64,000 nt of DNA, from NCBI GenBank assembly GCA_964482725.1, contig CAYZYT010000001.1:4632-68631 (forward strand). Direction: 5' to 3'. This DNA comes from an uncultured bacterium. Its GTDB lineage: Bacteria > Omnitrophota > Omnitrophia > Omnitrophales > Aquincolibacteriaceae. The stretch's first letter is position 1. Each line of letters starts with the position of its first letter. A program made the position numbers and the translations under genes. Below are positions 6,455-35,590 of this stretch, in pieces. The notes under the pieces were generated by a model. It had not been told where the DNA came from and did not search any database. It was given only the letters and a program-made list of their open reading frames with translations.

Positions 6455-6555
6455 TCGTCCCATGTCACACGCCACAAGCCACACGAAACGCTATTTTCCT
6501 AACTCTCTGTGCCTTGCGGCCTTGTGTCTTTGTGTCCTTGCGTTGTGCGTTATTC
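6455..6555. repeat. Inverted arrays of CACAAG-type 7-8 nt tandem repeats (gtcacacgccacaagccacacg ... ccttgtgtctttgtgtccttgcgttgtgcg) between the receiver gene start and the histidine kinase stop.
   Basis: Read directly. Can fold into a long imperfect hairpin. Different sequence from the GAGAC family but the same construction. Confidence 0.4.
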
Positions 6556-8891
6556 TATCCCACCAGCCCCTTCGGGAGAACAGGTTTTAAGGCCGGGGTT
6601 TCTGAATAAATAGGAAGCGTTAGCGTAAACGTCGTCCCCTCCCCGAGTCTGCTATCCACCGTGATCGTCCCGCCGTGCAATTCGATGATGTATTTGCACA
6701 TGTAAAGCCCAAGCCCCGAACCCTTGCCCGGCGCCTTGGTCGTAAACCCGTAGTTGAAAACCTTTTTCATCACATCTTCGGTCATCCCTGAGCCATTGTC
6801 CCGGAAGTGGATCGCGACCATACTGGGATCCCGCGGATCGATCTCGGCGAGAACCCCGATCTTGCGGTGACGTTTTCCGGCCATGGCATGATACGCATTG
6901 ATGAAAAGATTCAGGAACACCTCCTGGAGACGCTCCAAATCTCCTCGGATCAGAGGCACATTCCCCGGGACATTGAAATCGACTTCCGTCCCCGAAAGGT
7001 TATCGAGATAAGTCTGGAATTGCACAAGCGGCAGTGTCTCCTCCAGGATGAGCTTCAAGGATAAGGCCTCGAATTTTCCTTTTTCTGATTTCTTGAGCAG
7101 CCCGGTCAGCGTATTCACCACCGCCTTGATACGCTCAATATTTTTTTCCATCTTCTCGAACACATCGAGGATCTCCGTCACCTTCATATCCTGGTTTTTT
7201 CGGTATTTTAAAATGACGCGCGACACGTTCATCGAAAGGATGGTGAGCGGATTATTCACCTCGTGACCCACCGAGGCGGCCAACCGGCCCAGCGTCGCCA
7301 TTTTCTGTTCGTGAATGAGCTGGGCCTGCGTATCCTGAAGCTGTTTATTCGCCCCTTCGGCCTCTTGCAGGGCCTTGATCAAAAGCGTCTTCGAGTGCTC
7401 GAGCTGCCCATTGATCCGTTCAAGTTCGATGGTTTTCCGGACAGCCTCGTCATAGAGCCGCGCATTCTCGATGGCAATGGAGGATTCCTGAGCGAGGGTG
7501 TAGAGGAGGTTCAGATCTTCGGTCGAATAATATTCTCCGGATTTCTTTTCGCCGAGCATGAGGATATTCCGGAGTTCGCGCCCTAAAAAACTCGGCACAC
7601 AGCAACTGGCGTTGAGCTGGTTCATCCGTTCCCGGATCGCCTCGTAATCATAGGCTTTCTCACTTTTGTCCCTCCGGGAAGAGGCCTCCTCGACCTGCTC
7701 CCGGATCCGCTCGATATCCACCGCCTCTTTGTGAGTCTCCAGATAGTGGATCAGCGGGTCATTCTCATAAAGCGTGAGCGTCAGGAACTTTTTATCGAAC
7801 CCGCGCTGGTACACGAGGTGATACTGGTCACTCGTCCCCTCCCGCATCAACACCGCCGCATTCTTCACCCGCATCTTCATAGTCACAAAATGCACCACAA
7901 GGCCCAGGAGATGCTCCAGGCTCTCAATGTTCGACATCCCCCGCGACGCGTCTTTCAGAAGCTTGTGATAGTCGTACTTTTTCTGAAAAAGGAACTGGTC
8001 CGTGAGGTGCATCAAGGACTTCCGGATGGGGTCAAAAAGAGAAATAGCGACGAGAATACAAAGAATCTGCGTGGCCATCCGGCCCATCCCCAGAAACTGC
8101 CCGAGATAACTTTGAGCGACGGCGGTCACCACGCTGACAATGGCGATGATCACCCCGAAAAGACCGGCAAATACGATCGTTTTCCGGATGAGTGTTTCGA
8201 CGTCGATGAAACGATACCTCAAAACCGCATACGCCGTAACGCACGAAAAAAAGAAAACCCCCCAAAGCCCGAAAGGAAATGGGAAAAAACTGAGGTCATA
8301 AACCGGGAGAAAACCGCCCACGCCCCCCAAATACCCCAGGACATTGGCCGCCAGAAATGCAATCAGGGCTTTACGCTGTTGTCCCTTTCTTCTCATAGCA
8401 ACTCGCGCAAGCGTAAAAAATGCCACAGAAACAAAAAGAGCGAACAGAAGGCTCCAGACCCCGAAGAGGATCCCCGGATCCGGGAAGTAATTAAAGGTCA
8501 GTTTGGGGCTAACGTCCGTGATGAAAAGATGCGGCATAAAAATGATGCTGAGGGATATCCCCGAGATCAAACAATAGCCGACTTTGATGGTTTTTTTAAG
8601 ATAGCCATCTTCATTCCCGGTATACACCCGCACGAAATGCAGAAAAGCAACGGGGATAAAGACGCCTACGGCGTGACATACCTGGCAAAGGATGTAAGCC
8701 AGCCGATGATCATTGATAGAGGTGGCGGCAAAGACAAAAGCACTCCAGTGGGCGATCGTAAAAAGATACCAGCAAAAGCAAGTAACGAGTTTCCGATTCG
8801 TGGCCCGGAGATAGACCAGCAGCATCAGGGAAAACGCCGTGATCGAGGTGATGATTGCGGAATAGCCGTACTGTTGTGCGGGCGTCAGCAT
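6555..8891 (-). CDS. Sensor histidine kinase: N-terminal multi-TM (7TM-type) domain, GAF-like region, coiled coil, HisKA (HEVNNPLT), HATPase_c.
   Basis: Motifs read from the translation. Start placed at internal Met (MLTPAQQYG..., ATG at 8891) directly abutting the stop of the upstream methyltransferase gene at 8893. The 55-aa extension in the ORF track overlaps that gene. Confidence 0.85.
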   Translation of the reverse strand: MLTPAQQYGYSAIITSITAFSLMLLVYLRATNRKLVTCFCWYLFTIAHWSAFVFAATSINDHRLAYILCQVCHAVGVFIPVAFLHFVRVYTGNEDGYLKKTIKVGYCLISGISLSIIFMPHLFITDVSPKLTFNYFPDPGILFGVWSLLFALFVSVAFFTLARVAMRRKGQQRKALIAFLAANVLGYLGGVGGFLPVYDLSFFPFPFGLWGVFFFSCVTAYAVLRYRFIDVETLIRKTIVFAGLFGVIIAIVSVVTAVAQSYLGQFLGMGRMATQILCILVAISLFDPIRKSLMHLTDQFLFQKKYDYHKLLKDASRGMSNIESLEHLLGLVVHFVTMKMRVKNAAVLMREGTSDQYHLVYQRGFDKKFLTLTLYENDPLIHYLETHKEAVDIERIREQVEEASSRRDKSEKAYDYEAIRERMNQLNASCCVPSFLGRELRNILMLGEKKSGEYYSTEDLNLLYTLAQESSIAIENARLYDEAVRKTIELERINGQLEHSKTLLIKALQEAEGANKQLQDTQAQLIHEQKMATLGRLAASVGHEVNNPLTILSMNVSRVILKYRKNQDMKVTEILDVFEKMEKNIERIKAVVNTLTGLLKKSEKGKFEALSLKLILEETLPLVQFQTYLDNLSGTEVDFNVPGNVPLIRGDLERLQEVFLNLFINAYHAMAGKRHRKIGVLAEIDPRDPSMVAIHFRDNGSGMTEDVMKKVFNYGFTTKAPGKGSGLGLYMCKYIIELHGGTITVDSRLGEGTTFTLTLPIYSETPALKPVLPKGLVG

Positions 8892-8892: not shown

Positions 8893-9891
8893 TCAGTTTT
8901 TTGCGAAACAGTACTGCATGACCTTGAGCGGCTCGTACTCCAACGACAATTGTTTCTTGGAAAATCCTGCGTCCAGGAAAACCTTCTGGAAATCGTCCTC
9001 CGTTCGGTAGACAAGTTCCCAGTCCCCGCCCCATTCCATAAAGTGCCGCGAGGCATTGCTCCATTTATCGCGATAGTTCGAGATGATCAGCATGCCGCCC
9101 GGCGTCAGCAGTTCTTTAAGATTATGGATCAGGCGCGTCGATATTTTTTCGTCCAGATAATCAAAGAGCCCCGTCGAAAAGACCAGGTCGTATTTTTCAG
9201 AAATGTAATTTTTAATATTTTTTGCAAGCGCCAGCTTGATCGCATTTTTCTGGAAGAACCGGACTTGCGACTCATAGGGTTTTGAAACGATCTTCTTTTG
9301 CGCGTAATCAATGGAGTGCTGGTCATGATCCAGACAGTCCACGGTCAAATCCTTCCGGACCTCCGGCGTTTCTTCGAACATCTCCACGATGTCCGTGCAA
9401 GGTCCCGACGCCAAGTCGAGGATCTTCAAATTACGCCCTTTAAATCCCGCGGCAAAACTCGCCAGATGCCTTTTAAAATCCTCCTTGCGGTTCCTCGTCG
9501 CGGTGGAAGCGGCCGTTTTTAAAAAGTAGTTATCCATGCACCGTTCCATCCCGACGGTCGAAGGGTGATTCTTGTAAATTTCGTCAATGATCAGAAAATC
9601 CCCCTGATACCCGAAAGGCTTATCGATCACATGACGGTTGTAGCGCCCCAACCGGATAAAATCGCGACATTTCTCAATAAACAAATGCTTCATCTTGTAG
9701 ATCTTCGCCTCGTCGTTCCCGCACGCCTTCTCAAACTCGGCACACCACAAGAACACGCTATCGAGAGTTGCATCCAGATCTTTCTGAAAGGAGCTCCACT
9801 TCTCGGGGGCTTCATCCAAACTTTTCCGCATGTCGTTCAGTTTCGACCTGTATTGATGCGCCACATTCAAAAAATTCATTTTTTCGCCCAT
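8893..9891 (-). CDS. Class I SAM-dependent methyltransferase (not CheR-type) with a ~130-aa N-terminal extension.
   Basis: Motif I ILDLASGPC. Acidic post-I LDHD. Motif II YDLVFSTGLFDYL. Motif III LTPGGMLIIS. Start overlaps the stop of the upstream receiver gene by 1 nt, and its stop abuts the kinase ATG. Confidence 0.75.
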   Translation of the reverse strand: MGEKMNFLNVAHQYRSKLNDMRKSLDEAPEKWSSFQKDLDATLDSVFLWCAEFEKACGNDEAKIYKMKHLFIEKCRDFIRLGRYNRHVIDKPFGYQGDFLIIDEIYKNHPSTVGMERCMDNYFLKTAASTATRNRKEDFKRHLASFAAGFKGRNLKILDLASGPCTDIVEMFEETPEVRKDLTVDCLDHDQHSIDYAQKKIVSKPYESQVRFFQKNAIKLALAKNIKNYISEKYDLVFSTGLFDYLDEKISTRLIHNLKELLTPGGMLIISNYRDKWSNASRHFMEWGGDWELVYRTEDDFQKVFLDAGFSKKQLSLEYEPLKVMQYCFAKN

Positions 9892-10268
9892 TATCTTTTT
9901 AGAGCTTCGTTGATAGCTTTAAGCAGGACATCCATATCAAAGGGTTTCATAATGTAGGCCACCGGATGCAGCGCTCTCGCCTGCATTTCCTTGCTTTCAT
10001 CCGAATAGCCTGTGATAAAAATCTCCGGAGGCATTTTTGTCTTTTTTTTCTCAAAAACTTCTCTAAGTTTCGTTGCCGTCTGAATGCCGTCAAGCCCGGG
10101 CATACGTATATCCGAGATGATCAGGTCAAAAACCTCTTCCTCGGCTATATCGATCGCATCTTGGCCTCGTTTGGCGACAAACACTTCGAAATCATTTTTT
10201 TCCAAAAGCCTGGAAAAGGTTTTTGTGAGCAGTTCTTCATCATCAATGATGAGGATTTTCTTTTTCAT
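9891..10268 (-). CDS. Single-domain response regulator (receiver).
   Basis: KILIIDDE ... DLIISDIRMPGLDG ... K in MKPF. Confidence 0.85.
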   Translation of the reverse strand: MKKKILIIDDEELLTKTFSRLLEKNDFEVFVAKRGQDAIDIAEEEVFDLIISDIRMPGLDGIQTATKLREVFEKKKTKMPPEIFITGYSDESKEMQARALHPVAYIMKPFDMDVLLKAINEALKR

Positions 10269-10449: not shown

Positions 10450-12657
10450 TTACCGCGAAAAGTCAGACGGAAAACGGACGGTAAATGCCGCTCCCTCGCC
10501 CGGGGAGGAAACAACGCTCACGGAAGCGTTATGCCGCTTCAGGATCCCGAAGCTTACGGCAAGACCCAGGCCGGTACCAGCCCCCACGTCTTTGGTGGTG
10601 AAGAAAGGATCGAAGATCTTTTTCTGGTGCTCCGGCGATATACCGCTCCCGTTGTCCGTCACGACCAATTCGACGGCATCGGCAACCTGACGGGTTTCCA
10701 CAAGGATCCTGCCCTGTTTCTTGCCGTTACGGACGGCATCGCGTGCGTTCAAGAGAAGGTTTGTGAGTACCTGATCCAGTTCCCCCGCGATTCCTTTGAC
10801 GGGCGACACATCTCCCAGTTTCATCTCCACTTCGATATTTTCCTGTTGGAACTGGAAACCCAGAAGTGCGCAGGTGCCTTTTACCACATCGCGCAGATCG
10901 ACATCCCTATGAGGCGTTTCTTCTACGGTTTTCCGGGCGTATTTCATAAGCTTCTGTACGATCCCCTGGCAGCGCTTCGCGCCCTCCTCGATCAGATCAA
11001 GAGATTCTAGACTGTCCTCGGTAGCCGTCATCTTGAGGATCTGCGCATTGGTCAAGACCGCCGTCAGCGGATTATTGATCTCATGGGCGACGCCGCCGGC
11101 AAGCGTGCCCAAGGTCGCGAGTTTCTCGGCCTGGATCAGCTGTTCCTGCGTTCTGACGAGCTCCCGGGTCCGATCCTCCACTCGTTTCTCCAGCTCCACA
11201 TTCCACCGCTTGAGCTCATCACTCATCTTCCGGACCTGGGTGTAAAGTTCGTTGATATTCTCGTATTGCATAGAGTTCGAGAAAGCGATCGTCACCGGGA
11301 TCTTGAGTTCGGCAAGGAATTGGATTTCGTTCGACCCATAAGGTTTTAGATTCGCTTTCCGGCCGAGACTCACCACCCCGAGGAGCTTCCCACCCAGGAC
11401 GAGCGGTACCGCGACCAGCCCCTGCGTCAGACGGAAGAATTGTTCGATCTCAAAACGGAACGCCTCCACTTCAGGGTCCGCGCCGACAAGATCTCCCATC
11501 ACGACCGTATCCTTCGATTCGAGCCAGGTCAGGAATGGATGGCCCTTGGAAAAGGGCTTGAGATTACGCAAGCCTTTGGCAATGACAGGGACATACTCAC
11601 CATTTTTCTCATCCAACAGAAAGACCGAAAGGCGACGCACATAAAGCTGGCGGCGGAGCATTCGCGCGAAACTCTGCAGCAGGTCCCGGAGATTTTTCAG
11701 ATGCACCAACTCCCTGGAGAATTTTGTCATGACCGCAATCAGGTTCTTCCTCTGGCGCTGGAACAGATGATCGAGCCGGGGCTGGATGGCGCGAAAATAG
11801 AAATAAAAAGTAATGGCGACAGTGAGGTAATAGAACATAGAGCTCCAGGCGGACGATGGGTCCCGAAGGCTCTGGGTCCAGTAGATAAAAGCAGCGAAAG
11901 GGATGATGGCTGCGATCGTCGTCACCATCCACATGAGCGTCTTGTGGATGACAGTCTCGATATCCATGGCCCGATACCGGATGATCGCGTAGGCCACAAC
12001 CAGGATCCAGAAAAAAACCGCGAGAAAACCGAGCGGGAGAACGGAATAGTAAATGAATTTCGGCAGATAATCGAACGCTCCCAAAAAAGCTACAAGGAAG
12101 CCGATCGTGATCAATCCAATCTGGGTGCGGCGCACGCCCTTCGGCTCTTTGAAAAACGCACTAAAAAAATTGTAGAACGCACAGACGAGCACCAGAAAAA
12201 AGAAACCCAAGAAGTAGCGATTCAGGGGGCCGTAGACGGGATAAAAACCCCAGAAGTAACGAGTGACGCCCGGAAAACTGAGCGGGGAGAAAAGCCCGAC
12301 GATATAAAAAGCCGTACCAAAGAAAAGCCCGGTCCGGATCGCAACCTTTTGTCTCTTGAAGAGTCCGAGCCATGTCGCTGAGAAGTAATGTGTGCACGGA
12401 GCGATCAGGGCTACCCCCAAGAATGTCACCGTCCGATAGACCGCTAGCGCGATCTCCGGAGTACTCGCCGCATAAGTTCCGGCGATCCCGAGGAACCACA
12501 AGAAACCGCAGACACCGATCAGGAAAAACGAGAAATTAACACGCGAGCGCTTGTTCTGCAGGAGGATGAATATCCCGATCAAGAGCATCAGGATCCCGAC
12601 CGCCAGGACAGGAATCGCGTACCAGTTGAAATGAAAAGCGCGGATCAAAGTCGCCAT
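10450..12657 (-). CDS. Sensor histidine kinase, paralogous to 6555-8891: multi-TM N-terminal domain, GAF-like, HisKA (HEINNPLTAV), HATPase_c.
   Basis: Motifs read from the translation. Start placed at MATLIRAF (12657). The ORF-track extension to 12717 translates the heptad-repeat element. Confidence 0.85.
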   Translation of the reverse strand: MATLIRAFHFNWYAIPVLAVGILMLLIGIFILLQNKRSRVNFSFFLIGVCGFLWFLGIAGTYAASTPEIALAVYRTVTFLGVALIAPCTHYFSATWLGLFKRQKVAIRTGLFFGTAFYIVGLFSPLSFPGVTRYFWGFYPVYGPLNRYFLGFFFLVLVCAFYNFFSAFFKEPKGVRRTQIGLITIGFLVAFLGAFDYLPKFIYYSVLPLGFLAVFFWILVVAYAIIRYRAMDIETVIHKTLMWMVTTIAAIIPFAAFIYWTQSLRDPSSAWSSMFYYLTVAITFYFYFRAIQPRLDHLFQRQRKNLIAVMTKFSRELVHLKNLRDLLQSFARMLRRQLYVRRLSVFLLDEKNGEYVPVIAKGLRNLKPFSKGHPFLTWLESKDTVVMGDLVGADPEVEAFRFEIEQFFRLTQGLVAVPLVLGGKLLGVVSLGRKANLKPYGSNEIQFLAELKIPVTIAFSNSMQYENINELYTQVRKMSDELKRWNVELEKRVEDRTRELVRTQEQLIQAEKLATLGTLAGGVAHEINNPLTAVLTNAQILKMTATEDSLESLDLIEEGAKRCQGIVQKLMKYARKTVEETPHRDVDLRDVVKGTCALLGFQFQQENIEVEMKLGDVSPVKGIAGELDQVLTNLLLNARDAVRNGKKQGRILVETRQVADAVELVVTDNGSGISPEHQKKIFDPFFTTKDVGAGTGLGLAVSFGILKRHNASVSVVSSPGEGAAFTVRFPSDFSR

Positions 12658-12677
12658 AAGAACCCGCAAAGATCGGG

Positions 12678-12780
12678 GACCGGAGACCGGAGACCCGAGA
12701 CCAAAGACTGCAAACAAAAAACTAAAATCCTTAGACTTGTGGCTGCTATCTGTGGTCGGGGGTCTGTCGTCTGTCGTCTC
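12678..12780. repeat. REP-like element: heptad arrays 12678-12710 (GAGACCG GAGACCC GAGACCA AAGACTG) and 12754-12780 (inverted). The right arm overlaps the stop codon of the SRPBCC-AAR gene.
   Basis: Read directly. Confidence 0.55.
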
Positions 12781-14365
12781 ATGTGTTGACCTTTAGAGCC
12801 TTGACTTCCTCATCCGTTACAAGACGATGCCCCCAAAAAAAAGGCGCGAGGTCGAAGCCGTGCTTACGGGCCAGTCCCAGGATCTCCGTCATTTTGGGCT
12901 GCGTGATATTCCCTTTCCCCCAGGAGAAATTCTCGTACCGCTCTTCGAGAGCCAGCACGATCGCTTCTGAAAAACAGCCGTAAAGAACATTCGAGGACGG
13001 GAGACCGATATCAAAACCTGCATTGAATTCTTGAGGTAAGGAGCAAATACCTCCCGAAAAGATCAGGATGTCTTGGCGGTCACAGTCCCGGTAAGAGATA
13101 TTCTTCGGGTATCCGATGTCGCAGACGATGGCGCCCGGCTTAAAATTCGCGATATCAAGGATCGAATGCGAAACACTCGCCGCGGCGATCACGATATCCG
13201 CGTCTCGAACCGCTTCGTTATTGTCATGCATCCCGTGGAATTTCGCCTTTCCGAACATCGTGATGACCTTGCTCATATGCTCCAGGCTCTCACCGCTCCG
13301 GCTCGTAATGACGAGATCGCTTACCTTATCCGCCAGCGCTCGTGCGCAGGCGCTGCCGATATCCCCCGCCCCTCCAATCACCGTGACTTTGGCCGTTGAG
13401 AGGTCCAGCCCCCGGAGTCGCGCGGCTTTTAGAACCCCTTCCACCGCCAATGCCGCGGTTAAGGTGTTCCCCGTCGTGACCGGTATATTGATAAGCTTTT
13501 TGAATTCTTCTCCGTATTTTTCTCCGGCGATCGAGGTAAAACCTCCGAGCGCCACGATCCCGAGGCCAAGCTTTTCCGCCACTTTGCAGGACTCCACAAC
13601 CTTCATCACTCCTTTTTGCATATCCTTGTCAAGAAGGTCTGGAATGATATTGCACGCGATGAACGCCCCGCGGGTCGTCTTGCCGCTGGAGCCCCGGAAC
13701 TCCTTCACGTCATAGGAAACATAGGAAGGGACAAGATCAAAGATCTTGGCCAGAAATTCCTCGGAAGGGACTTTCATGTCGGGTTTGAAGGATTGAAAGT
13801 ATTTAATCAGATGATTCAGATTATAGGGATGGCCGATCACCCCGAAGCCCCGGACATCGCTGATCCGCCGATCGCCGATCTTATGATAACGACGCTCGGT
13901 CAGGATCCCTTCGAAAGCTTGAAGCATGGAATCGAAGTTCCTTTTGACGCGCTCGGCAAGAGCTCCCCCGATGATCGTCTCAAGCACCGGGATCCCCAGA
14001 CTCACTCTCGCATCGACCCGAACCTCCGTCCCGCCCGCGGGATGCTCCGTCAGATGCCACTCGCCTTCGAATGTTTCAAGATCTCCATCTATGGCCTTGA
14101 AGCGGATAATAAAGTGATGAAAATCAAAGGTCTCTTCTTCTTTCCAGGAGATCGGGATACGTCCCATTTCGACTTTCCACGCAGTCACGACCTTGGTACG
14201 ACTGTGGCTCAGGACACGGCACTCCGTAACGTTTGGCATGATCCGAGGGAAGTCCTGAACACGCGTAAGGAGGCGCAGCACTTGCCAGCGCTTGGCGGGC
14301 AATATACGGCTCGCGGTCACGGCATAAACGCCGTCCTTTTTTTCCATTGGGGATGCCCCCTCCAT
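12779..14365 (-). CDS. Fusion protein: N-terminal SRPBCC (polyketide cyclase/START-like ligand-binding) domain (~170 aa) plus a full-length acyl-ACP reductase (AAR)-family NAD(P)-dependent dehydrogenase.
   Basis: The C-terminal two-thirds shows the blocks conserved in cyanobacterial acyl-ACP reductase: ALGGFTSI, TTGNTLTA, VTVIGGAGDIGSA, DIGYPKN, NFSWGKGNIT, ARKHGFDLAP. The N-terminus has the Polyketide_cyc2-like pattern. Confidence 0.7.
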   Translation of the reverse strand: MEGASPMEKKDGVYAVTASRILPAKRWQVLRLLTRVQDFPRIMPNVTECRVLSHSRTKVVTAWKVEMGRIPISWKEEETFDFHHFIIRFKAIDGDLETFEGEWHLTEHPAGGTEVRVDARVSLGIPVLETIIGGALAERVKRNFDSMLQAFEGILTERRYHKIGDRRISDVRGFGVIGHPYNLNHLIKYFQSFKPDMKVPSEEFLAKIFDLVPSYVSYDVKEFRGSSGKTTRGAFIACNIIPDLLDKDMQKGVMKVVESCKVAEKLGLGIVALGGFTSIAGEKYGEEFKKLINIPVTTGNTLTAALAVEGVLKAARLRGLDLSTAKVTVIGGAGDIGSACARALADKVSDLVITSRSGESLEHMSKVITMFGKAKFHGMHDNNEAVRDADIVIAAASVSHSILDIANFKPGAIVCDIGYPKNISYRDCDRQDILIFSGGICSLPQEFNAGFDIGLPSSNVLYGCFSEAIVLALEERYENFSWGKGNITQPKMTEILGLARKHGFDLAPFFWGHRLVTDEEVKALKVNT

Positions 14366-14537
14366 GATGTCCTAAGGCAATTCTAGCGTCAGGACGCTCT
14401 TACATTATCGGCCGGAGTTGGGGTCTTTTAACCCTGGATTGCAACATCTCATTGGAAGAGGGTTGCAGGGGGGGGGCCTTGTAAAACTCGAGTTTGTAAG
14501 GAGATGAGCGGAGTCGAGGTCCTACCTTCGTAGACAA

Positions 14538-14577
14538 AAAAACGGCCCCGCTTTTTCAAGCGGAGCCGTTTGAAACC
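14538..14577 (-). terminator. Rho-independent terminator for the 14599-15207 gene. Minus-strand hairpin cggctccgc-ttgaaaaa-gcggggccg followed by a T7 run.
   Basis: Read directly. 9-bp GC-rich stem with 1 mismatch plus U-tract, 20 nt downstream of the stop. Confidence 0.6.
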
Positions 14578-16086: not shown

Positions 16087-19000
16087 TTAATGACTCTGGA
16101 CCGCTTTATGCACTGATAAAACCCGCACCTTTTCAGATGCGCCCGAAAAAAAAGCCCTAAAAATTTCCCGGATATCGTCGGTGATCATCACAAGCGCCGG
16201 AAGAACAAAAAGGATCAGAATGGTCGAACTGATCAACCCCCCGATGATAGTCACCGCCAGAGGTGACCAGAGATCGCTCGCCTGTCCAAAGCTCATGGCC
16301 ATAGGCAGAAATCCTAGGATGGCCGCGATCGCGGTCATAAGAATGGGCCTCAGCCGGTCGACGCCCGCTTGAATAAATCTCTCTTTTTTGCTTTGATCCT
16401 CAGGTAAATGGAGGGCATGATCCACCAGGAGGATCGCCGCATTCACCGAATAGCCCGCCAACATGATCATCCCGATAAAAACTTGCGTGCTGAGAGGTTT
16501 ACGCGTGATCGCAAGGGCGATCCATATCCCGATAAAATTGAGCAAGATCTTGATCATGATCAGGAACGGATAGAGATAATTCTCGAATAAACAGGCCATG
16601 ACCATATAGACCAGAAAAACCGTGATCAGAAGAGCCACCGCAAGCTGTCCTTTGCTTTCCAGAAGTTCCTCGAACCCGCCGCCGAAACGCCAATAGTAGT
16701 CATCCGGAAGCTTCACATCCTGCAAGACTTTTTTGACATCGGCCGCGATCTTTTCGATCGGTCGCTTCACATCCCCTTTGACGAAAACATAACGATGTTT
16801 GTCTCTGCGATCAATGCTCTGGGGACCGGTCGAAGGGTAGAAGTTCGCGATCTCGCTCAAAAGGACTTGCCTCGATTCCCGGGTCTGGATATAGACCTGC
16901 CCCAGGTCATCGAGCTTTTGCCGGTAAATAGCCTGAAGCCGCGTGATGGTTTCGATCTCTTCGCCTTTGGAAAGTTCGTGAAATTTCGTAGGCCTCATGC
17001 CGCGAACCTGAGCATGCATACTGTCTGCCACCGTCTTGACGCTCAGCCCATACATCGCGGACTTGCCTTTATCCACGACGAGCGAATACTCCGGCCGCTT
17101 GCGAAGGTCTGTCATGACCAGATTCGCCAAACCGTCCACCTTCGACATCTTGTTGGCAAATTCCTTGGCGAGTTTTTCAAGCTCATCCCCATCCTGGCCA
17201 TAGATATTCACGATGAGTTTTTTCTGCTCAGAGGAACCGGCCCCCTCATCCACGATCAGGCTGTAATCGCTATGGATTTCTTTGACCGCCGCGTTCCCCT
17301 GTTCATCGATGAGCTTCATGATCTCGTCTTTGGAGAACTGGCGTTTGCGAGCGGGCTTTAACCGGACAAAAAGCCGGAGGTCGTCCTTCGAAACCGTCGT
17401 AGAAAAGAGCGTGATATCCGGGATCTTCGAGAGGATCCCTTCGAGCTTTTTCATGGCTTGATCGTTGGACTCCAGGCGCGCGCCGGCCAACGGGAACGTG
17501 ACAACCGCGAATTCGTTCTCTTCAAAAGACGATGGCCAATCGATCGGTGTGCGGGCCAACATATAGATGGCCAGAAAACAGAGGCCAAAAACCACGGGCA
17601 CGACCCTCCATCGCCAGGTAATACACCAGCGAATGGCATTCACATATTTTTCCCGCGCCTTATCGATAAAAGAGCTTGAGGTGTCTTTGTGGTGCGCATT
17701 CAGGGCTGCGATCCCGAACTGGCGAATGAGCATCGGGATCAACATGAGCGCCGAAAAAAAAGATGCAATGAGAGAAATGCTGATCGTGAAAGCAAATCCT
17801 CCATAGGTGAGCTGAACGGTCTTATCGATAAAAATGATCGGCATGAACACCACGAGCATCGTGAGGAGCGACGTCAAAAGCGGAAGCCAAACTTCTTCGC
17901 TCCCTTCCCGAATGGCCTGAGCGTCCCCGAAACCGCGCTCTTTTTTAGAGAAAATGTTTTCCATGATCACGACCGCGGTGTCGATCAGGATACCGATCGC
18001 AAGCGACAACCCGCTCAAGGTCATGACATTGATACTGATCCCAAGCGCCGCCATAAAAATGAACGTCGCGATCAAAGAACATGGGATCACGACCAGAATG
18101 ATCGCCGCCAGCACCCAATTGCGTATAAAAACATAGATAACGCCCATGGTCAGCACCAGCCCCAAATAGAGCGCTCCCTTCACGTCATCGATAGCACGCG
18201 CGATCGTTTCGGCCCGATCATTCACGAGCACGACCTTCACATTCTCTTTATGCTCCCGCTCAAACGAATCCAGAACCTGATTAAGATCCTTCGCAACATC
18301 CAAGGTATTGGACATACTGGATTTTTTTACATAGACCGTGACATTCTGCTCCAGGTTCAAACGCGCCTGATCCGTAGCCTCGAGATAAGAGTCCTTGATC
18401 GTCCCGATCTCCTTCAGAGGAATGATGGATCCCTGACGAGTGGCCTTCACGCCAATGTCCCCCACCTCGTCCACCGTGAGAAAAGAACCCATGCTCCGGA
18501 CCGCGTACTCGAACTTTCCGGTCTCAACGTTCCCGGCCAAAAGATTGATGTTGCTCTGGCCCAGGACGTCCATCACCCGTTCGATCGAGATGTTATAAGC
18601 CACCATCTTGTCGCGGTCGAGCTCCACCAGGATCTTCCGTTCACGCCCGCCATAGACTTCCACGCTCGCCACCCCATCCACACGGCTGATGACCGGTTTA
18701 AGCTTGATATCCACCATCTCACGGATCTCTTCCGGGGACATGTTCTGAGAAGTCACCGCGAACACCATAATGGCGGCCTGAGCATCATCGTAATTGGCGA
18801 TGACGGGCTTTTCAATTTCCTTGGGGAGCAGGGGCTTGACGCGCGCAAATTTTTCACGGACTTCGAGCGCGGCAAACTTCATATCCGTACCGGGATCAAA
18901 CTCCATGGTCACGCGGGACTCCGCTTCACGCGAACTCGAGTAGAGACCTTTCATATGACTCACGGTACCGATGGCTTCTTCGATGGGTTTGGTGATCATC

Positions 19001-19185
19001 TTTTCGACATCTTGGGAAGGAAGTCCGCCGCGGGCACGCACCACGATCGAGATGATCCCCTGGCTCTGGCCCTGATAGAGTTCCACTTTTAAACGCATGA
19101 GGGAGATGATGCCGATCACGATCACCCCGGCAAAGAGGATGGCCGTAAAAACCGGACGTTTAAGCGCGAAACTGGGGAGTCCCAT
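16087..19185 (-). CDS. RND efflux permease (AcrB/HAE1 family), second of two tandem permeases.
   Basis: 1032 aa with the 12-TM, two-large-periplasmic-loop AcrB architecture. N-terminus MGLPSFALKRPVFTAILFAGVIVIGIISL. Confidence 0.9.
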   Translation of the reverse strand: MGLPSFALKRPVFTAILFAGVIVIGIISLMRLKVELYQGQSQGIISIVVRARGGLPSQDVEKMITKPIEEAIGTVSHMKGLYSSSREAESRVTMEFDPGTDMKFAALEVREKFARVKPLLPKEIEKPVIANYDDAQAAIMVFAVTSQNMSPEEIREMVDIKLKPVISRVDGVASVEVYGGRERKILVELDRDKMVAYNISIERVMDVLGQSNINLLAGNVETGKFEYAVRSMGSFLTVDEVGDIGVKATRQGSIIPLKEIGTIKDSYLEATDQARLNLEQNVTVYVKKSSMSNTLDVAKDLNQVLDSFEREHKENVKVVLVNDRAETIARAIDDVKGALYLGLVLTMGVIYVFIRNWVLAAIILVVIPCSLIATFIFMAALGISINVMTLSGLSLAIGILIDTAVVIMENIFSKKERGFGDAQAIREGSEEVWLPLLTSLLTMLVVFMPIIFIDKTVQLTYGGFAFTISISLIASFFSALMLIPMLIRQFGIAALNAHHKDTSSSFIDKAREKYVNAIRWCITWRWRVVPVVFGLCFLAIYMLARTPIDWPSSFEENEFAVVTFPLAGARLESNDQAMKKLEGILSKIPDITLFSTTVSKDDLRLFVRLKPARKRQFSKDEIMKLIDEQGNAAVKEIHSDYSLIVDEGAGSSEQKKLIVNIYGQDGDELEKLAKEFANKMSKVDGLANLVMTDLRKRPEYSLVVDKGKSAMYGLSVKTVADSMHAQVRGMRPTKFHELSKGEEIETITRLQAIYRQKLDDLGQVYIQTRESRQVLLSEIANFYPSTGPQSIDRRDKHRYVFVKGDVKRPIEKIAADVKKVLQDVKLPDDYYWRFGGGFEELLESKGQLAVALLITVFLVYMVMACLFENYLYPFLIMIKILLNFIGIWIALAITRKPLSTQVFIGMIMLAGYSVNAAILLVDHALHLPEDQSKKERFIQAGVDRLRPILMTAIAAILGFLPMAMSFGQASDLWSPLAVTIIGGLISSTILILFVLPALVMITDDIREIFRAFFSGASEKVRVLSVHKAVQSH

Positions 19186-19187
19186 GA

Positions 19188-22100
19188 TCAGGCCGGGGGA
19201 GGTGTTACGGAGCTTTCTTCAACGGTTTCTTCCTCGTAACCAAGAACCTTTTCCATGAACCGGTTCACGATGATGTAAAAGCACGGAAGTACGATCAGGG
19301 TCAGCACCGTAGAAGAAAAAAGACCTCCCATGGCGGTGATGGCAAGAGGCGACAGAAGTCCTCCGCCCTCCCCAAGACCCAGAGCGATCGGCAACATGCC
19401 CATAATGGTCGTGGTGGACGACATAAGAACAGGACGCGTTCTTGTGCGTACCGCCTCCCAGACGGCTTCGACCATCTCCTTACCTTCCGAGCGGAGCTGA
19501 TTAATATACTCCATCAACACGATCCCATTCCCCACGACCACGCCGCCCAAAAGCACAAGGCCTAAAAGAGAGATCACGTTAAAAGAGCTCCCGGTCACTT
19601 TAAGAGCAATGAGCGCTCCCCCGAAAGAAAGCGGCACGGTGACCATAATGATCAAGGGCTGCAGAAAAGACTCAAACTGGGCCGCCATGATCATATAGAC
19701 AAGCATGATGGCAAGCGCGAACGCGAAAATAACTCCTCCGAAATTCTCCTTGATCTCCTTGGCCTTACCGGAAAGGCGGACCTGGAAATCCTGAGGGATA
19801 TCGGTAGGGACCTTCAGCCCCGCAAGAAATTTTTGAACGTCCGCGAGCACATCCTTGTCCTGACGGGTCTTATCGATCTCCGCCGAAATGGTCACCGTAC
19901 GCTCCTGGTCCATGCGCTTGATCTCACTCGGTCCTTGACCTCGATTGATGGAAGCGATTTCCTTCAAAGGAACGTGAATATCCAAGACCTTCGAGTAAAG
20001 CAAGAGTGTCCCGAGATTCGAGATATTCTCCTTGTCCTTATCGCTTAACCTGACCCGAACATCGATCTCTCGGCCGGCCTCGCGATACTGTGTCGCCACC
20101 ACACCTTCAATGGCCGCTTTCGCGGTAAGGGAGATATCCATCGCCGAAACTCCGTAAAGAGCCGCGCGCTTTTTATTGATCTCGAGCTTCGTCTCTGGCG
20201 TTTTCTCGCCGCTATCATCCTGAATGTTGACGATCCCGGGGATCGCCCCGAGGCGCTCCTTGAGCCGCTTCACAAGTTCTTCCATAGCCATAAAATCATA
20301 CCCCTTCGCCTCGATCAAGATCGGTTTGATACTGCCGGCCCCGACCGAAAATTCGCTTTCCTGGAGTATAAACTCCACCTTGGCTTCATCTTTCTCAAAG
20401 TTCAGCGCTCCGATTTTCTTCTTAAGGGCAGCGACGATCTTGGCGGAAGGCTTTTTCCTTTTCTTATCGAGCGTCACAAGGATAAGCGACTGGGAGGGCC
20501 TCAGGGTCTCGATCTTGATCTCTCCGCGGCTCGTTTTTTCACTGCCGATCGCAACCGAAATATCCTGGACCGTCGGCTCCGAGCGCAGTACCTCTTCCAG
20601 CCGTTTGCAAACCTCGTCCGTGACATTGAGCCGGGTACCGAGAGGCATATCGACCTTCACGTAAAATTGCCCTTGATCCACCTTCGGCAAAACCTCGCGA
20701 TCGATCGTGGGCACTATCAAAAAAGTCGAAGCAAGCACCACGAACGCCGTAAGCAAAATACTGCCCATGAAACGGTTCTGTCCCGTTTTTGTGGGTATCG
20801 ACATGATCTGTTGGTCCAAGTCCCCCGTGAGACTCAGCGGCGTGTACTCCTGCTGTCTCACGGTCACATACGTGGAAAGCAACGCGATCAGCGTCAGCGG
20901 AACAAAAGTCGAGATGATCTGCGAAAAAATGATCGCCCAGGCGAGATCCTTAAAGATCTGGCCGGCAACTCCGGGAACAAAAACGATCAGAGGAAAGAAT
21001 ACGGCGATCGTCGTCAGGTTGGAGGACACGACAGGCCACACCACTTCCGAAGCTCCATCAATAGCGCCTTGTTCCGCATTGGCACCCTCCTGCCGTTTAC
21101 GGAAAATATTCTCCAGCACGACGATACTGGTGTCCGTGATCATCCCGATGGCGATCGCAAGCCCCCCCAAGGACATGATGTTCACCGTCACACCGGCCAT
21201 GGCCATCAAAAAAAACACACCCAAAATGGTCAGCGGAAGCGACACGACCACCAGGACCGACATCGCAATAGCGCGAAGGTAGATATAAAGCGTGATCAGG
21301 GCTAACACACCGCCCTGCATGGCCTGACTCGCCAGATTTTCGATCGTGCCACGGATAAAAATAGAATGGTCGTAAATGATCTTCACCTGAAGCCCGCGGG
21401 AATTCAGGTCTTCATCAAGAAATTTCAGCTCCTTGCGAAGCTTGTCTACGACCTGAATGGTGTTCGCGTTCGACTGTTTTTGAATGGCCACGGAAATATT
21501 CTGAGCCCCGTTATAACGGGAAATGCTGGTCTTATCCGCCAGCCCATCCACCACATTCCCGATATCCTTGACAGTCACGAGGCGCTTCTCGAGCATCTGT
21601 TTTTCAACCTCTCCCCGAAGTCTTTCAATCGTCTGGCGGGGCCCTTCGCTTGTGTCGCGCTCCACAAAACTCAGATCATCCCGGCGGAGTTTTTCCACAT
21701 TATCCACCCCCACCACCGCATATCCGATCTCGGCCACCGTGCGGAAATCTCCGACCGTCCGGATCAGATATTCATAGAGCCCTTTCTTGATACTCCCGGC
21801 CGGGTAGGAGACATTGGCTTCATCCAGGGAATTGACCACCTCCAACAGTGAAAGTTTGTTGGCCTGAAGACGCGGTTGATCGATCTCCACCAGGATCTCG
21901 CGATTTACACCCCCCGAAAGACTGACCGAAGCGACCCCTTCCACTTTCTCCAGGCGATCTTTGATCATTTTCTCGGTCAGGAGTTTCATGCGCACTGGAG
22001 GAAGATCCGGAGCGGTGACCGAAAGCAGAAGGATCGGACGGGAGAGAGGATCGAATTTCAGGACTACCGGATCTTCGGCTTCCTTGGGAAGTCTTTCCTT

Positions 22101-22445
22101 GATGAGATCGACTTTTTCGCGGATCGCCAGCGCCGCGAAATCAATATCCTGACCCCAGTTAAAGGAGGCCATGATGGTGCTGCGGCCTTCTCGCGAAACG
22201 GATTCAATGCGCTTCAAACCCGCCACAGACCCGATTGCTTCCTCCACGACACGTGTGATGAGCGTTTCGATCTCCTCGGGGGCAGCGTTCGAATAATCGG
22301 TGACCACTGTGACTTGAGGGAAAGTGATCGGCGGAAAAAGATCTTGCGGGAGACGCTTGAAAGAAAGAACGCCCAGGAGGATCAGCCCGAGCGTGAACAT
22401 GTAGATCGTGACTTTTTTCTTGATCGCGAATTCTGGGAGGCTCAT
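19188..22445 (-). CDS. RND efflux permease (AcrB/HAE1 family), first of two tandem permeases.
   Basis: 1085 aa. N-terminus MSLPEFAIKKKVTIYMFTLGLILLGVLSFKRLP is typical AcrB. Confidence 0.9.
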   Translation of the reverse strand: MSLPEFAIKKKVTIYMFTLGLILLGVLSFKRLPQDLFPPITFPQVTVVTDYSNAAPEEIETLITRVVEEAIGSVAGLKRIESVSREGRSTIMASFNWGQDIDFAALAIREKVDLIKERLPKEAEDPVVLKFDPLSRPILLLSVTAPDLPPVRMKLLTEKMIKDRLEKVEGVASVSLSGGVNREILVEIDQPRLQANKLSLLEVVNSLDEANVSYPAGSIKKGLYEYLIRTVGDFRTVAEIGYAVVGVDNVEKLRRDDLSFVERDTSEGPRQTIERLRGEVEKQMLEKRLVTVKDIGNVVDGLADKTSISRYNGAQNISVAIQKQSNANTIQVVDKLRKELKFLDEDLNSRGLQVKIIYDHSIFIRGTIENLASQAMQGGVLALITLYIYLRAIAMSVLVVVSLPLTILGVFFLMAMAGVTVNIMSLGGLAIAIGMITDTSIVVLENIFRKRQEGANAEQGAIDGASEVVWPVVSSNLTTIAVFFPLIVFVPGVAGQIFKDLAWAIIFSQIISTFVPLTLIALLSTYVTVRQQEYTPLSLTGDLDQQIMSIPTKTGQNRFMGSILLTAFVVLASTFLIVPTIDREVLPKVDQGQFYVKVDMPLGTRLNVTDEVCKRLEEVLRSEPTVQDISVAIGSEKTSRGEIKIETLRPSQSLILVTLDKKRKKPSAKIVAALKKKIGALNFEKDEAKVEFILQESEFSVGAGSIKPILIEAKGYDFMAMEELVKRLKERLGAIPGIVNIQDDSGEKTPETKLEINKKRAALYGVSAMDISLTAKAAIEGVVATQYREAGREIDVRVRLSDKDKENISNLGTLLLYSKVLDIHVPLKEIASINRGQGPSEIKRMDQERTVTISAEIDKTRQDKDVLADVQKFLAGLKVPTDIPQDFQVRLSGKAKEIKENFGGVIFAFALAIMLVYMIMAAQFESFLQPLIIMVTVPLSFGGALIALKVTGSSFNVISLLGLVLLGGVVVGNGIVLMEYINQLRSEGKEMVEAVWEAVRTRTRPVLMSSTTTIMGMLPIALGLGEGGGLLSPLAITAMGGLFSSTVLTLIVLPCFYIIVNRFMEKVLGYEEETVEESSVTPPPA

Positions 22446-22568
22446 AGTCTAGTCCCAACCAAGCCCTTCGTTAAAACAACGGTTGGGCCCGTACTGCGAA
22501 CCCTTAAATGGATGAATACCGCAGTGCTGGGAATCACTCTGCGGAGTTGACCTTTCGTCCGCATGGTC

Positions 22569-24014
22569 CTAAAGCTCGGCTTCTTGGGTTTCGATCAAAC
22601 GGACCTTCTTTCCATCCTCCAATCTCTCGAACCCGGTCATGGTGATGAGCTCTCCTTCCGTAAGGCCCGCGTCGATCTGAGAATAGTCGGTGCGGGTGTA
22701 ACCCACGGTCACAGGACGCTTCTCTACGGTCCCTTCCTCGATCTTTTCGGAACCTTTCTCGTTGGTCGCCTTGCCGGCTCCTTTTGAGCTCTTCTTTTCA
22801 GCCTTGTCCTGGCCTTGAGCCCCTGCACTTAACGCCGCGATAGCCCCCAGCCCTCCGCCCATAGCTCCAGCAACTTTGGGTTCTACGGTCTTGGAAGCAG
22901 CACCCTCGGGAAGTTGGATCACATAAACGAACTTCTCGCCTTCGCCACCTTGGATGGCATCCGTCGGGACCACAAGAGCATCCTTCTTACTATAGAGCAT
23001 GACGCGAACACGGGCGAACATCCCCGGCATCATAAAACCTTCCGGATTTTCAATGCGCACCTTAGCGGTCGAAGTCCGGCTTGTCCCCGAGATCTGCGGC
23101 GCAATATTTTCGATCACGCCCTCAAAGGTCTTATCCGGATAAGCGTCCACGAAAACCTTGGCCTTTTGCCCAAGCGTAATCTTCTGGACATCGCGCTCGA
23201 CGATCCCGAACTCGGCGTAAACATACTCCGTATTGATATGGGTCCCGATCAGCGTGCTCTGGCTGATATTTTCCCCTTCCTCAACATTCAGATCTCCCAA
23301 CATCCCGGAGGAGGGCGCATAAAGATTGGATTTCTCAAGCATGGCCTCGTTCGCCTTCATTTCAAGACGTTGAGCCTCGGCTTCGTATTTTGCGGCATCC
23401 ATTTCCAATTTCTTTTTTTCCACCGTCGACGGCGGGATCGCCCCCATCTTCAGGAGCTTTTCATTTTCCGCGACCTCGTTCTCCGTCACCTTGGCTTGAG
23501 ACTCTGCTTTATTGAAAGCCGCCTGAGCCCGCTTCAACCGCAAGAGGATGTCATCCTGTTTCATAGATACGAGCAAAGCACCTTCCTCGTAACGTTCCCC
23601 TTCTTTGTAATTGATCGAGCTGATCACGCCCGGGATCTCGAAACTGAGTTTCAGCTCCATCGCCCCCTTGATCGTCCCAAGCACATTCATGGAATCTTCA
23701 TAATTGAACCGGCCCACTTTGAATCCCTTGACCGCCACCGGCGCATCCTTGGCCGCCTGCTGTTGCTGCTTCATCGTTTCGCTCAAAGAAGGTTGCTTGG
23801 CTTTGAAAAGCCCCATCACCATCTTCCCCCCCAGGAAAAGCCCGAGCACGACCAGAGCGATGATGATCAGACGGACTTTATTCTGAAAAAGCCAAGAACT
23901 TCGCATCGCCTCCGGAACGGGAAGCGGCATTTTGACCGGCCCCTCGGAGGATGGGGATTTGATCCTGAATGAACTCTTTTCGTTTCCGGGATTCTCTTCG
24001 TCTTTCATGTCCAT
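22569..24014 (-). CDS. RND efflux membrane fusion protein (periplasmic adaptor, HlyD/AcrA family) with a low-complexity Gly/Ala/Lys linker.
   Basis: TM anchor, coiled-coil hairpin, lipoyl and beta-barrel regions recognisable. Confidence 0.85.
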   Translation of the reverse strand: MDMKDEENPGNEKSSFRIKSPSSEGPVKMPLPVPEAMRSSWLFQNKVRLIIIALVVLGLFLGGKMVMGLFKAKQPSLSETMKQQQQAAKDAPVAVKGFKVGRFNYEDSMNVLGTIKGAMELKLSFEIPGVISSINYKEGERYEEGALLVSMKQDDILLRLKRAQAAFNKAESQAKVTENEVAENEKLLKMGAIPPSTVEKKKLEMDAAKYEAEAQRLEMKANEAMLEKSNLYAPSSGMLGDLNVEEGENISQSTLIGTHINTEYVYAEFGIVERDVQKITLGQKAKVFVDAYPDKTFEGVIENIAPQISGTSRTSTAKVRIENPEGFMMPGMFARVRVMLYSKKDALVVPTDAIQGGEGEKFVYVIQLPEGAASKTVEPKVAGAMGGGLGAIAALSAGAQGQDKAEKKSSKGAGKATNEKGSEKIEEGTVEKRPVTVGYTRTDYSQIDAGLTEGELITMTGFERLEDGKKVRLIETQEAEL

Positions 24015-24071
24015 TTTAAGCTCCGCTTGAGATCCTGCTTTTCAAAAAAGGGCCTGCGATCGGGATCGATT

Positions 24072-31982: not shown

Positions 31983-32064
31983 TTTTTCAGATCGCCTCAG
32001 CTTCCTCTAAGGGAACAGGCTCTAGATAACAGCCTGTTCCCTCGAAGGCCTATCCAGCTCCGTC

Positions 32065-35575: not shown

Positions 35576-35590
35576 GCTTTTTTTGTGCCT

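Follow-up and report, generated by a model that had tools for sequence, protein, structure and literature searches.

A START domain fused to an acyl-ACP reductase-like enzyme and its link to a seven-helix histidine kinase in Candidatus Omnitrophota

The DNA analysed here, called the window throughout, is a stretch of 64,000 nucleotides from an uncultured bacterium of the Omnitrophota (contig CAYZYT010000001.1, positions 4,632 to 68,631). One of its genes encodes a 528-residue protein, read from ATG to stop, in which an SRPBCC (START-like) domain is joined to a thioester reductase resembling cyanobacterial acyl-acyl carrier protein (acyl-ACP) reductase (AAR). Why should an enzyme of an aldehyde-forming family carry a START domain, and what would such an enzyme be for? 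We found that the fusion recurs across the Omnitrophota and that its gene is coupled to a gene for a polytopic histidine kinase. We believe that the best explanation as a whole, to which we give a probability of roughly 0.55, is that fatty aldehyde is supplied under signal control for the remodelling of envelope lipids, with the START domain escorting the aldehyde at the mouth of the reductase tunnel.

The two domains of the fusion protein

An earlier note on this DNA had read the gene as an SRPBCC domain fused to an AAR-family domain, and this architecture was confirmed by Pfam, NCBIfam, matches to solved structures and the predicted fold. In NCBIfam, residues 174-505 cover positions 2-335 of the 339-position AAR model TIGR04058 (E 9.4e-47, 160 bits). 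The N-terminal part of the PigE model aligns with residues 174-525 at about the same score (158 bits, E 3e-46). Other Rossmann families scored far lower: 33.1 bits for hemA (GluTR) and 23.5 bits for aroE (shikimate dehydrogenase). Thus, the C-terminal domain does not fall into either of these two families and the N-terminal region does have an SRPBCC fold, the two points on which the earlier note had said its reading could fail. In Pfam, the sole match to the C-terminal half was the generic NAD-binding family PF01488 (Shikimate_DH). The best sequence matches in the PDB were Synechococcus elongatus AAR (6JZQ, E 1.2e-34) and PigE (4PPM, E 1.5e-25). We also predicted the structure of the fusion protein with AlphaFold from an 83-sequence family alignment (mean pLDDT 90.3). 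A Foldseek comparison of the model with the PDB placed AAR chains 6jzy and 6jzu first (E ~1e-26 to 2e-26, target TM 0.82-0.84), followed by the TAD domain of carmabin (TM ~0.7). Because the pTM of the model is 0.87, it suggests that the START and reductase domains are held in a fixed mutual arrangement.

The residues that matter in AAR are mostly present. Cysteine 464, which aligns with the catalytic cysteine of AAR, was found in 79 of 86 aligned sequences (85 locus copies and the window protein). Arg356 was kept in the same number and aligns with AAR R189, one of the residues that hold the 2'-phosphate of NADPH (PMC7089970). Because of this match, NADPH is the likely cofactor. The counterpart of AAR R193 is a serine. 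Mutation of AAR residues R73, R79, K80 or Y247 abolishes binding of aldehyde-deformylating oxygenase (ADO) (PMC7089970); the fusion protein keeps K80 and Y247 and has Asp in place of R73 and Met in place of R79. The earlier note had listed motif blocks shared with AAR. The blocks ALGGFTSI, TTGNTLTA, DIGYPKN and NFSWGKGNIT stood, but the nucleotide loop reads GGAGDIGSA (GATGDIGSA in AAR) and the C-terminal block is KHGFDLAP, not RHGFxxxP.

Judged by its sequence, the C-terminal domain is a complete AAR-type thioester reductase and a member of the broader AAR-like family that includes AAR, the N-terminal part of PigE and the C-terminal part of TamH (COG5322). It has significant similarity to two characterised branches (AAR and PigE), the conserved cysteine and the NAD(P) site. 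It is not an AAR orthologue, because its 160 bits fall far below the TIGR04058 equivalog cutoff of 449.7 bits, an ADO gene was not found in the window or in ~93 related loci and two ADO-contact arginines are replaced. Thus, the AAR assignment made earlier holds as membership of the family and not as orthology, the PigE model fitting equally well.

The N-terminal domain is matched by PF03364 (Polyketide_cyc; residues 23-145, E 6.4e-18, 65.7 bits against a gathering threshold of 23.4) and by PF10604 (residues 16-151, E 3.3e-10). Its predicted secondary structure, a strand, two helices, six strands and a long helix (126-161), follows the helix-grip order. In Foldseek, this part of the model matched the START protein TTHA0849 (2d4r) at a target TM of 0.88 and a root-mean-square deviation of 1.6 A, and the aromatase/cyclases ZhuI, TcmN and WhiE at TM 0.73-0.83 (0.77-0.83 for ZhuI and TcmN). 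TTHA0849 (2D4R) was also found when the START sequence was searched against solved structures. W63, W74, D95 and W103 are invariant in all 80 aligned SRPBCC-containing sequences (79 locus copies and the window protein). The type II toxin model for RatA (PRK10724) gave 29.1 bits against a cutoff of 258 bits; the 'RatA' label that JGI attaches to homologues reflects the shared domain only. Database labels on homologues are 'SRPBCC family protein', 'predicted amino acid dehydrogenase/RatA' and 'long-chain acyl-ACP reductase'. Most homologues align from residues 7-16, and for that reason the true start of the protein may be Met7 rather than Met1.

Full-text searches of a literature library for the fusion and its operon, COG5322 and HisKA_7TM found no paper on function. 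Nor did they give any paper on an SRPBCC-AAR fusion, in agreement with the earlier view that the architecture is uncharacterised. In a 2026 review, bacterial START proteins are said to be typically single-domain, and an AAR fusion does not appear in it.

A fusion family of the Omnitrophota and its genetic partners

We searched species-representative genomes for related loci with a seven-sequence alignment and two peptide patterns, and found at least 138 confirmed relatives. This number is a lower bound because both patterns are specific to the branch of the window protein. For counts of gene context, we kept 80 loci from the 138 relatives, all with full-length fusions of 44-91% identity. Their labels are nearly all Omnitrophota, with a few metagenome-assembled genomes named as uncultured bacterium, Planctomycetes or Uhrbacteria. 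A word-indexed protein search gave 680 matches; the best 120 are almost all 500-553 residues long with both domains, and each taxon name that the source supplied for these 120 is Candidatus Omnitrophota or Omnitrophica. An exhaustive search of 50%-identity cluster representatives returned 2965 proteins at E <= 1e-3, of which 323 reached E <= 1e-30. In this set, SRPBCC-AAR fusions could be recognised down to ~28-35% identity, together with longer forms and a large cloud of stand-alone AAR-like proteins of 350-380 residues. The fusion branch at ~30% identity is likewise Omnitrophota. The stand-alone homologues come from Endomicrobia, anaerobic Firmicutes and other groups, and are usually annotated as 'shikimate dehydrogenase'. 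Thus, the SRPBCC-AAR fusion is a hallmark of Candidatus Omnitrophota and is common in the phylum.

Several variants of the fusion were found. In locus L093 the two domains are split: a 144-residue SRPBCC gene ends at 8000 and a 373-residue AAR-like gene starts at 8001. The existence of this adjacent-gene form points to a functional link between the domains. Other homologues of 630-780 residues carry PilZ, or HTH_17 and PilZ, in front of the SRPBCC-AAR core (P0130, P0133, P0288-P0294; L089:8001-10169), and these forms would imply that c-di-GMP is an input to the enzyme. Some further fusion homologues have short arginine-rich N-terminal extensions with DRR repeats. Finally, six loci contain a second, short AAR-like paralogue of 321-372 residues, located 5' of a PlsC-type acyltransferase gene in the order paralogue, PlsC, fusion, kinase. 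The paralogue lacks START, H179 and D416, has Ser, Ala or Thr in place of the catalytic cysteine and a degenerate nucleotide loop, and was not matched by any Pfam family. These traits make it a probable pseudoenzyme. In the same way, P0126, a fusion representative, lacks the cysteine and an intact loop.

To describe the neighbourhoods, we called open reading frames in the 80 loci, clustered them and annotated the cluster representatives. The dominant neighbour of the fusion, found in 64 of the 80 loci, is a histidine kinase of ~730 residues with HisKA_7TM, GAF, HisKA and HATPase domains. In 61 loci the kinase is located 3' of the fusion in the same orientation. The distance is at most 304 bp in 39 of them, and in 23 the kinase start overlaps the fusion stop. 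Fifteen of the 16 loci without the kinase cluster have less than 3.4 kb of downstream sequence, and the other (L023) has shorter 7TM kinases farther on. Next in 46 loci is a receiver-only response regulator of 125 residues. The link persists at ~30% identity: L090 has the order fusion, 7TM-GAF kinase and receiver-nucleotide cyclase, the truncated genes 3' of the fusion in L089 and L092 are N-termini of 7TM kinases, and in L093 a kinase follows the split form. Thus, the enzyme-kinase operon link is near-universal across the fusion family. It is the most informative feature of the locus and was absent from the earlier note, as was the lipid-synthesis neighbourhood of the related genomes. The stand-alone homologue of Halothermothrix orenii has no kinase or START neighbour, so the operon logic cannot be transferred from a cultured organism.

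The remaining neighbours are rich in lipid enzymes. Upstream of the fusion in 29 loci is a PlsC-type acyltransferase of 198 residues, which usually overlaps the fusion gene by 11 nt and resembles most closely the acyltransferase domain of acyl-ACP--phospholipid O-acyltransferase (Aas). Some loci have, between fusion and kinase, a GMC oxidoreductase with an Fe-S motif, an HpnA-like short-chain dehydrogenase/reductase (SDR) protein of ~890 residues or a B12-radical-SAM enzyme. Farther downstream, among more kinase-regulator pairs, are FabF, FabG-like, FabA/Z-like and FabK-like proteins, two hot-dog thioesterases, a GDSL acylhydrolase, an ICMT/PEMT-type methyltransferase, an aldehyde dehydrogenase and GAF-HD-GYP proteins. 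With 464 bits to the fabF model, the ketoacyl synthase is of the FabF-like kind. In L006 (19556-21235) it is fused to a receiver domain, and in L014, L023, L045, L048, L056 and L066 the FabF-like gene shares 4 nt with a receiver-only gene. Fusion and overlap suggest direct phosphorelay control of a fatty-acid elongation enzyme. Because of these arrangements, the PilZ-enzyme fusions and the receiver-only regulators, the lipid enzymes appear to be outputs of the signalling proteins.

Three of these neighbours deserve a remark of their own. The GMC-family FAD oxidoreductase has an embedded 4Fe-4S (Fer4) motif, an unusual cofactor pairing for this family (L059:17149-18441 and six other loci). The ~890-residue SDR protein (the +1 gene of L003/L006) has an N-terminus that scores 337 bits to HpnA against a cutoff of 368; its C-terminal 547 residues have no Pfam match. 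The B12-radical-SAM enzyme (L086:11538-13007) has weak similarity to HpnJ and to the radical-SAM family of ladderane lipids.

The alkane pathway would require ADO. Pfam scans found no ADO or wax-synthase domain among the annotated open reading frames of the window. A lead-level tblastn search with an ADO query gave nothing better than E 4 in the window and no match in ~93 related loci. These searches bear out the earlier remark that no ADO gene is nearby, and by comparative context the fusion is not part of an alkane pathway. When E. coli AcpP was used as the query in a similar search, a single weak match (L066) came up in the ~93 loci; thus an ACP gene is not co-located with the fusion.

The locus in the window

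The coordinates of the features are collected in the table. Compared with the related loci, the window carries a reduced form of the neighbourhood. In the direction of transcription, genes for an outer-membrane factor, a membrane-fusion protein, two RND pumps, a 199-residue protein and a CBM11-like protein precede the fusion. It is followed by the 7TM kinase, a regulator, a methyltransferase, a second 7TM kinase, a second regulator, an RmlC-like cupin and an MMPL/sterol-sensing transporter. Because a terminator-like hairpin and a promoter-like site lie upstream of the fusion and no terminator-like site precedes the kinase, this arrangement suggests that the fusion gene starts a new transcription unit running into the kinase. 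The spacer between fusion and kinase folds as a long imperfect hairpin (-44.2 kcal/mol, z -3.1), in which the region of the fusion stop codon pairs with the kinase start codon. Its arm sequences (GAGAC..AGACC / GGTCT..GGTC) recur in L013, L017 and L021, with compensatory changes in 2 of 20 pairs. The hairpin may be a translational-coupling or processing element.

Table. Features of the fusion protein and its locus, with the short paralogues of related loci (window positions unless a locus is named)
Feature	Position	Strand	Basis or remark
SRPBCC + AAR-like fusion, whole gene	12779..14365	(-)	ORF (open reading frame) call, Pfam, NCBIfam, PDB sequence matches, homologue alignment
SRPBCC/START helix-grip domain, residues ~12-161	13883..14332	(-)	Pfam, predicted structure, Foldseek
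Linker, residues 162-173, from START C-terminal helix to first reductase strand	13847..13882	(-)	Predicted secondary structure; AAR model begins at residue 174
AAR-type thioester reductase, residues 174-528 (N-terminal acyl-tunnel domain, Rossmann mid-domain, C-terminal domain)	12782..13846	(-)	
Dinucleotide-binding loop G331-G-A-G-D-I-G337, equivalent to AAR 162-GATGDIG-168	13355..13375	(-)	Alignment; PMC7089970
Cys464 codon, aligned with AAR catalytic Cys294 (acyl-enzyme nucleophile)	12974..12976	(-)	Alignment; codon verified
Promoter-like site 5' of fusion: TTAAAA, 16-nt spacer, GATAAT	14404..14431	(-)	Consensus match only
Strong terminator-like hairpin, 14-bp stem and T run, ending the upstream CBM11-like gene	14540..14571	(-)	
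Fusion-kinase spacer	12658..12778	(-)	No terminator-like site; folds as long hairpin
Histidine kinase, 7TM (HisKA_7TM) + GAF + HisKA + HATPase	10450..12717	(-)	Gene caller's start is ATG 12657; conserved downstream partner
Single-domain response regulator, 125 aa, receiver only	9891..10268	(-)	
SAM-dependent methyltransferase (Methyltransf_20/31)	8893..9891	(-)	Start overlaps regulator stop; recurs in 10 related loci
Second HisKA_7TM histidine kinase, 778 aa per gene caller	6555..8891	(-)	
Second single-domain response regulator, 122 aa	6072..6440	(-)	
Short AAR-like paralogues	L068:9-974, L069:8353-9390, L070:8297-9415, L076:8440-9432, L086:8331-9374, L088:7504-8532		

The efflux system upstream of the fusion (16087-26027, reverse strand) consists of tandem RND pump genes (1032 and 1085 residues), a membrane-fusion protein and an outer-membrane factor. 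It is conserved 5' of the fusion in 18 related loci, together with the 199-residue protein and the secreted CBM11-like protein of 202 residues. No Pfam match was found for the 199-residue protein or for a 223-residue protein. The MMPL transporter with a sterol-sensing domain (2155-4506, reverse strand) can be set beside the similarities to HpnA and HpnJ as a further echo of hopanoid or sterol biology.

Two additional gene sets were found elsewhere in the window, both on the reverse strand. A type IV pilus/type II secretion set (31521-40022) includes an N_methyl pilin-like protein, T2SSF, T2SSE with MshEN, a secretin and PilO- and PilM-like proteins. A glycosylation-type cluster (41642-55009) contains four GT2 glycosyltransferases, a methyltransferase, a PMT_2-like protein, two B12-binding radical-SAM enzymes (45744-47264 and 48221-49651) and an 868-residue STT3/PglB-like oligosaccharyltransferase (52403-55009). 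The first 2000 positions have a GC content of 0.415 compared with ~0.52 elsewhere, and their sole sizeable open reading frame (877-1416, 179 residues) has no convincing family match.

A model for the fusion, its alternatives and known systems

Based on these results, we propose a model in which the fusion is a cytoplasmic two-domain enzyme. As in the AAR family, a fatty acyl thioester (acyl-ACP or acyl-CoA) would enter the cleft and the acyl group would move onto Cys464. NAD(P)H bound at the GGAGDIG loop would then reduce the acyl-enzyme to a fatty aldehyde. Thus, the enzyme probably turns activated fatty acids into fatty aldehydes. The aldehyde-forming relatives that have been studied biochemically, AAR (PMC7089970), PigE (PMC8341465) and TamH (PMC9594044), all reduce carrier-bound thioesters via a cysteine.

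The second part of our model explains what the START domain may do. In AAR, the N- and C-terminal domains together form the acyl tunnel; substrate enters through a cleft above the catalytic cysteine in the mid-domain, and the distal exit of the tunnel lies on the N-terminal domain, where its mouth (Y23/Y26) faces the ADO interface for delivery of the aldehyde (PMC7089970). In the fusion protein, START would be tethered through its long C-terminal helix and the 12-residue linker to about residue 2 of the N-terminal domain of the reductase. Because this anatomy would bring START near the tunnel exit, it would most likely handle the hydrophobic chain at the tunnel mouth, replace ADO and accompany the reactive aldehyde on its way to a following enzyme or the membrane. 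It is plausible that START channels or sequesters the aldehyde, and this role competes with substrate capture and ligand sensing.

Several points weigh against this model. The reductase scores far below the AAR equivalog cutoff, an ACP gene is not co-located, and the AAR-fold domain TAD may carry out other chemistry, terminal amidation. As Cys-less, degenerate paralogues and P0126 exist, the AAR-like scaffold may also be used non-catalytically. The closest solved relative of the START domain, TTHA0849, has a very small pocket according to the 2026 review. Gene adjacency does not give the direction of control between enzyme and kinase. Finally, the window itself has no PlsC, GMC oxidoreductase, aldehyde dehydrogenase, thiolase, ~890-residue SDR, receiver-ketoacyl synthase or any ketoacyl synthase.

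The alternative that survives best keeps the reductase chemistry and gives START another task: it would capture acyl-ACP as substrate for the reductase, or act as an allosteric ligand-sensing switch, much as the PYR/PYL START receptors control PP2C. We regard this as possible, and as a good deal less probable than the aldehyde escort. The mycobacterial helix-grip protein MSMEG_5634 binds acyl-AcpM (PMC9014085), a precedent for capture. The pocket reported for TTHA0849 would not hold a long chain and so speaks for a sensor of small ligands, and the neighbouring genes are rich in the sensory domains GAF, PilZ and receiver. However, the N-terminal tether puts START nearer to the tunnel exit of AAR than to the entry cleft in the mid-domain.

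A second alternative, which we think unlikely, is that the enzyme is a signal synthase whose hydrophobic aldehyde, or a tailored derivative, is the ligand of the co-transcribed 7TM kinase in an autocrine or quorum-sensing-type circuit. Such pairs exist: RpfF/RpfC, CqsA/CqsS and PhcB/PhcS each place the gene for a synthase of a fatty-acyl-derived signal beside that of a polytopic membrane kinase. By this analogy, the pairing of enzyme and kinase, near-universal, tightly spaced and co-oriented even at ~30% identity, is what would be expected. Further, the kinase input is a polytopic 7TM domain and a large periplasmic domain is absent; the outputs downstream include a receiver-nucleotide cyclase and GAF-HD-GYP proteins, and a methyltransferase-kinase-regulator unit comes next in the window. 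Conversely, the PilZ-SRPBCC-AAR and receiver-ketoacyl synthase fusions put the enzymes at the receiving end of signalling. The loci have a near-complete auxiliary set of type II fatty-acid synthesis enzymes plus an acyltransferase, which is typical of bulk lipid synthesis, and the phylum-wide spread fits a housekeeping envelope function.

In a more specific form of this circuit, START would hand the aldehyde or its derivative to the membrane and the seven-helix domain of the kinase would sense it; we hold this, too, to be doubtful. The outputs, taken jointly with the circuit and at the same low odds, would be the receiver-only regulators, cyclic-nucleotide enzymes and receiver- or PilZ-fused lipid enzymes. 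The Omnitrophota are a phylum of ultra-small, possibly host-dependent bacteria, and if true the circuit would give this phylum an autoinducer or feedback system of a new, fatty-acyl-derived class.

Other chemistry at the AAR-like fold, either TAD-like off-loading with amidation or an amino-acid or shikimate dehydrogenase activity, is improbable. It would agree with the names 'shikimate dehydrogenase' and 'predicted amino acid dehydrogenase' that sources give to homologues, with the Shikimate_DH domain as the only Pfam match and with the shared fold and cysteine of TAD. However, the full-length match to the AAR model is far stronger than those to aroE and hemA, TAD is much farther away (E ~5e-8), and the gene context is fatty-acid metabolism, not nonribosomal peptide (NRPS) or polyketide (PKS) synthesis or aromatic amino-acid synthesis. 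It is very improbable that the protein is a type-II-PKS-like aromatase/cyclase fused to a reductive release domain that yields a cyclised polyketide aldehyde. The structural matches to ZhuI, TcmN and WhiE, a weak sequence match to BexL and the ketoacyl synthases and a thiolase of some loci would fit, but START is closest to TTHA0849 and RatA/CoQ10-type proteins rather than to aromatase/cyclases, the ketoacyl synthase is FabF-like, a pair of ketoacyl synthase and chain-length factor (KS-CLF) was not seen and the window has no ketoacyl synthase.

ADO requires O2. Many Omnitrophota lineages are described in a survey paper on the phylum as encoding acetogenesis; the paper contains no discussion of lipids. 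Therefore, despite the shared motifs, fold and catalytic cysteine, we dismiss as hardly credible a true AAR orthologue of the alkane pathway with its ADO elsewhere in the genome, which the score, the lack of ADO in the 64-kb window and ~93 loci, the two replaced arginines and the mismatch between an O2-dependent ADO and acetogenesis all speak against.

The preferred model, signal-controlled aldehyde supply with START as escort, matters for two reasons. The first concerns the enzyme. To our knowledge, no soluble route from acyl-ACP to free fatty aldehyde exists outside the AAR family. The use of AAR-family enzymes in biotechnology is limited by slow product release without bound ADO; a natural AAR-type enzyme with a built-in hydrophobic-ligand domain could reveal how an aldehyde is handed off without ADO, and the fusion could serve as a useful part for production of fatty aldehydes or alcohols. 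The second concerns the organisms. We know of no isolates of Omnitrophota and of no account of their membrane chemistry. The fusion family marks a conserved, uncharacterised lipid module in this phylum, whose enzymes seem to be coupled directly to two-component and c-di-GMP signalling through the enzyme-kinase operons and the PilZ-enzyme and receiver-ketoacyl synthase fusions. Post-translational phosphorelay control acting directly on fatty-acid enzymes would be unusual.

Three features are new here: START as the partner, a distribution restricted to Omnitrophota and a conserved coupling with a 7TM kinase. In its reductase chemistry the protein most likely follows a known family, and the fusion of an AAR-type reductase to an aldehyde-handling partner has precedent in PigE and TamH. 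With cyanobacterial AAR (EC 1.2.1.80; S. elongatus orf1594; 6JZQ/6JZU/6JZY) the fusion shares a three-domain fold at ~28-30% identity, the catalytic cysteine (C294/C464), the GxxGxxG loop, the arginine R189/R356 and the DxGYPKN and NFSWG motifs. It differs in its N-terminal START domain, its histidine kinase operon and its non-photosynthetic Omnitrophota host; the ADO partner and R73/R79 are not kept. In PigE (N-terminal domain) and TamH (C-terminal domain), of the prodiginine and tambjamine pathways, an AAR-family reductase is likewise covalently joined to an aldehyde-handling module. Their partner is a pyridoxal phosphate-dependent transaminase that converts the aldehyde to an amine, whereas the START partner looks non-enzymatic, sits on the opposite side from the transaminase of PigE and belongs to a locus without a pigment gene cluster. 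The TAD of the carmabin NRPS/PKS (9E4S/9E4X/9E50) shares an AAR-like fold and an invariant cysteine beside NAD; it is far more distant, ends an NRPS module and has other proposed chemistry (putative terminal amidation).

On the START side, the relatives are the stand-alone proteins TTHA0849, RatA/CoQ10-type and MSMEG_5634. They share the helix-grip fold, and TTHA0849 also shares a GD...G.W signature, but in Omnitrophota the domain is fused to a reductase. Among them there is a precedent for the binding of lipid tails or acyl-ACP. On the signalling side, Des-DesK-DesR, RpfF-RpfC and CqsA-CqsS also have a gene for a fatty-acyl-modifying enzyme beside a polytopic histidine kinase and a regulator. 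The Des system senses the state of the membrane, and RpfF-RpfC and CqsA-CqsS work with fatty-acyl-derived signals. The Omnitrophota pair differs from all three in its unrelated enzyme family, its HisKA_7TM and GAF input and its response regulator without a DNA-binding domain.

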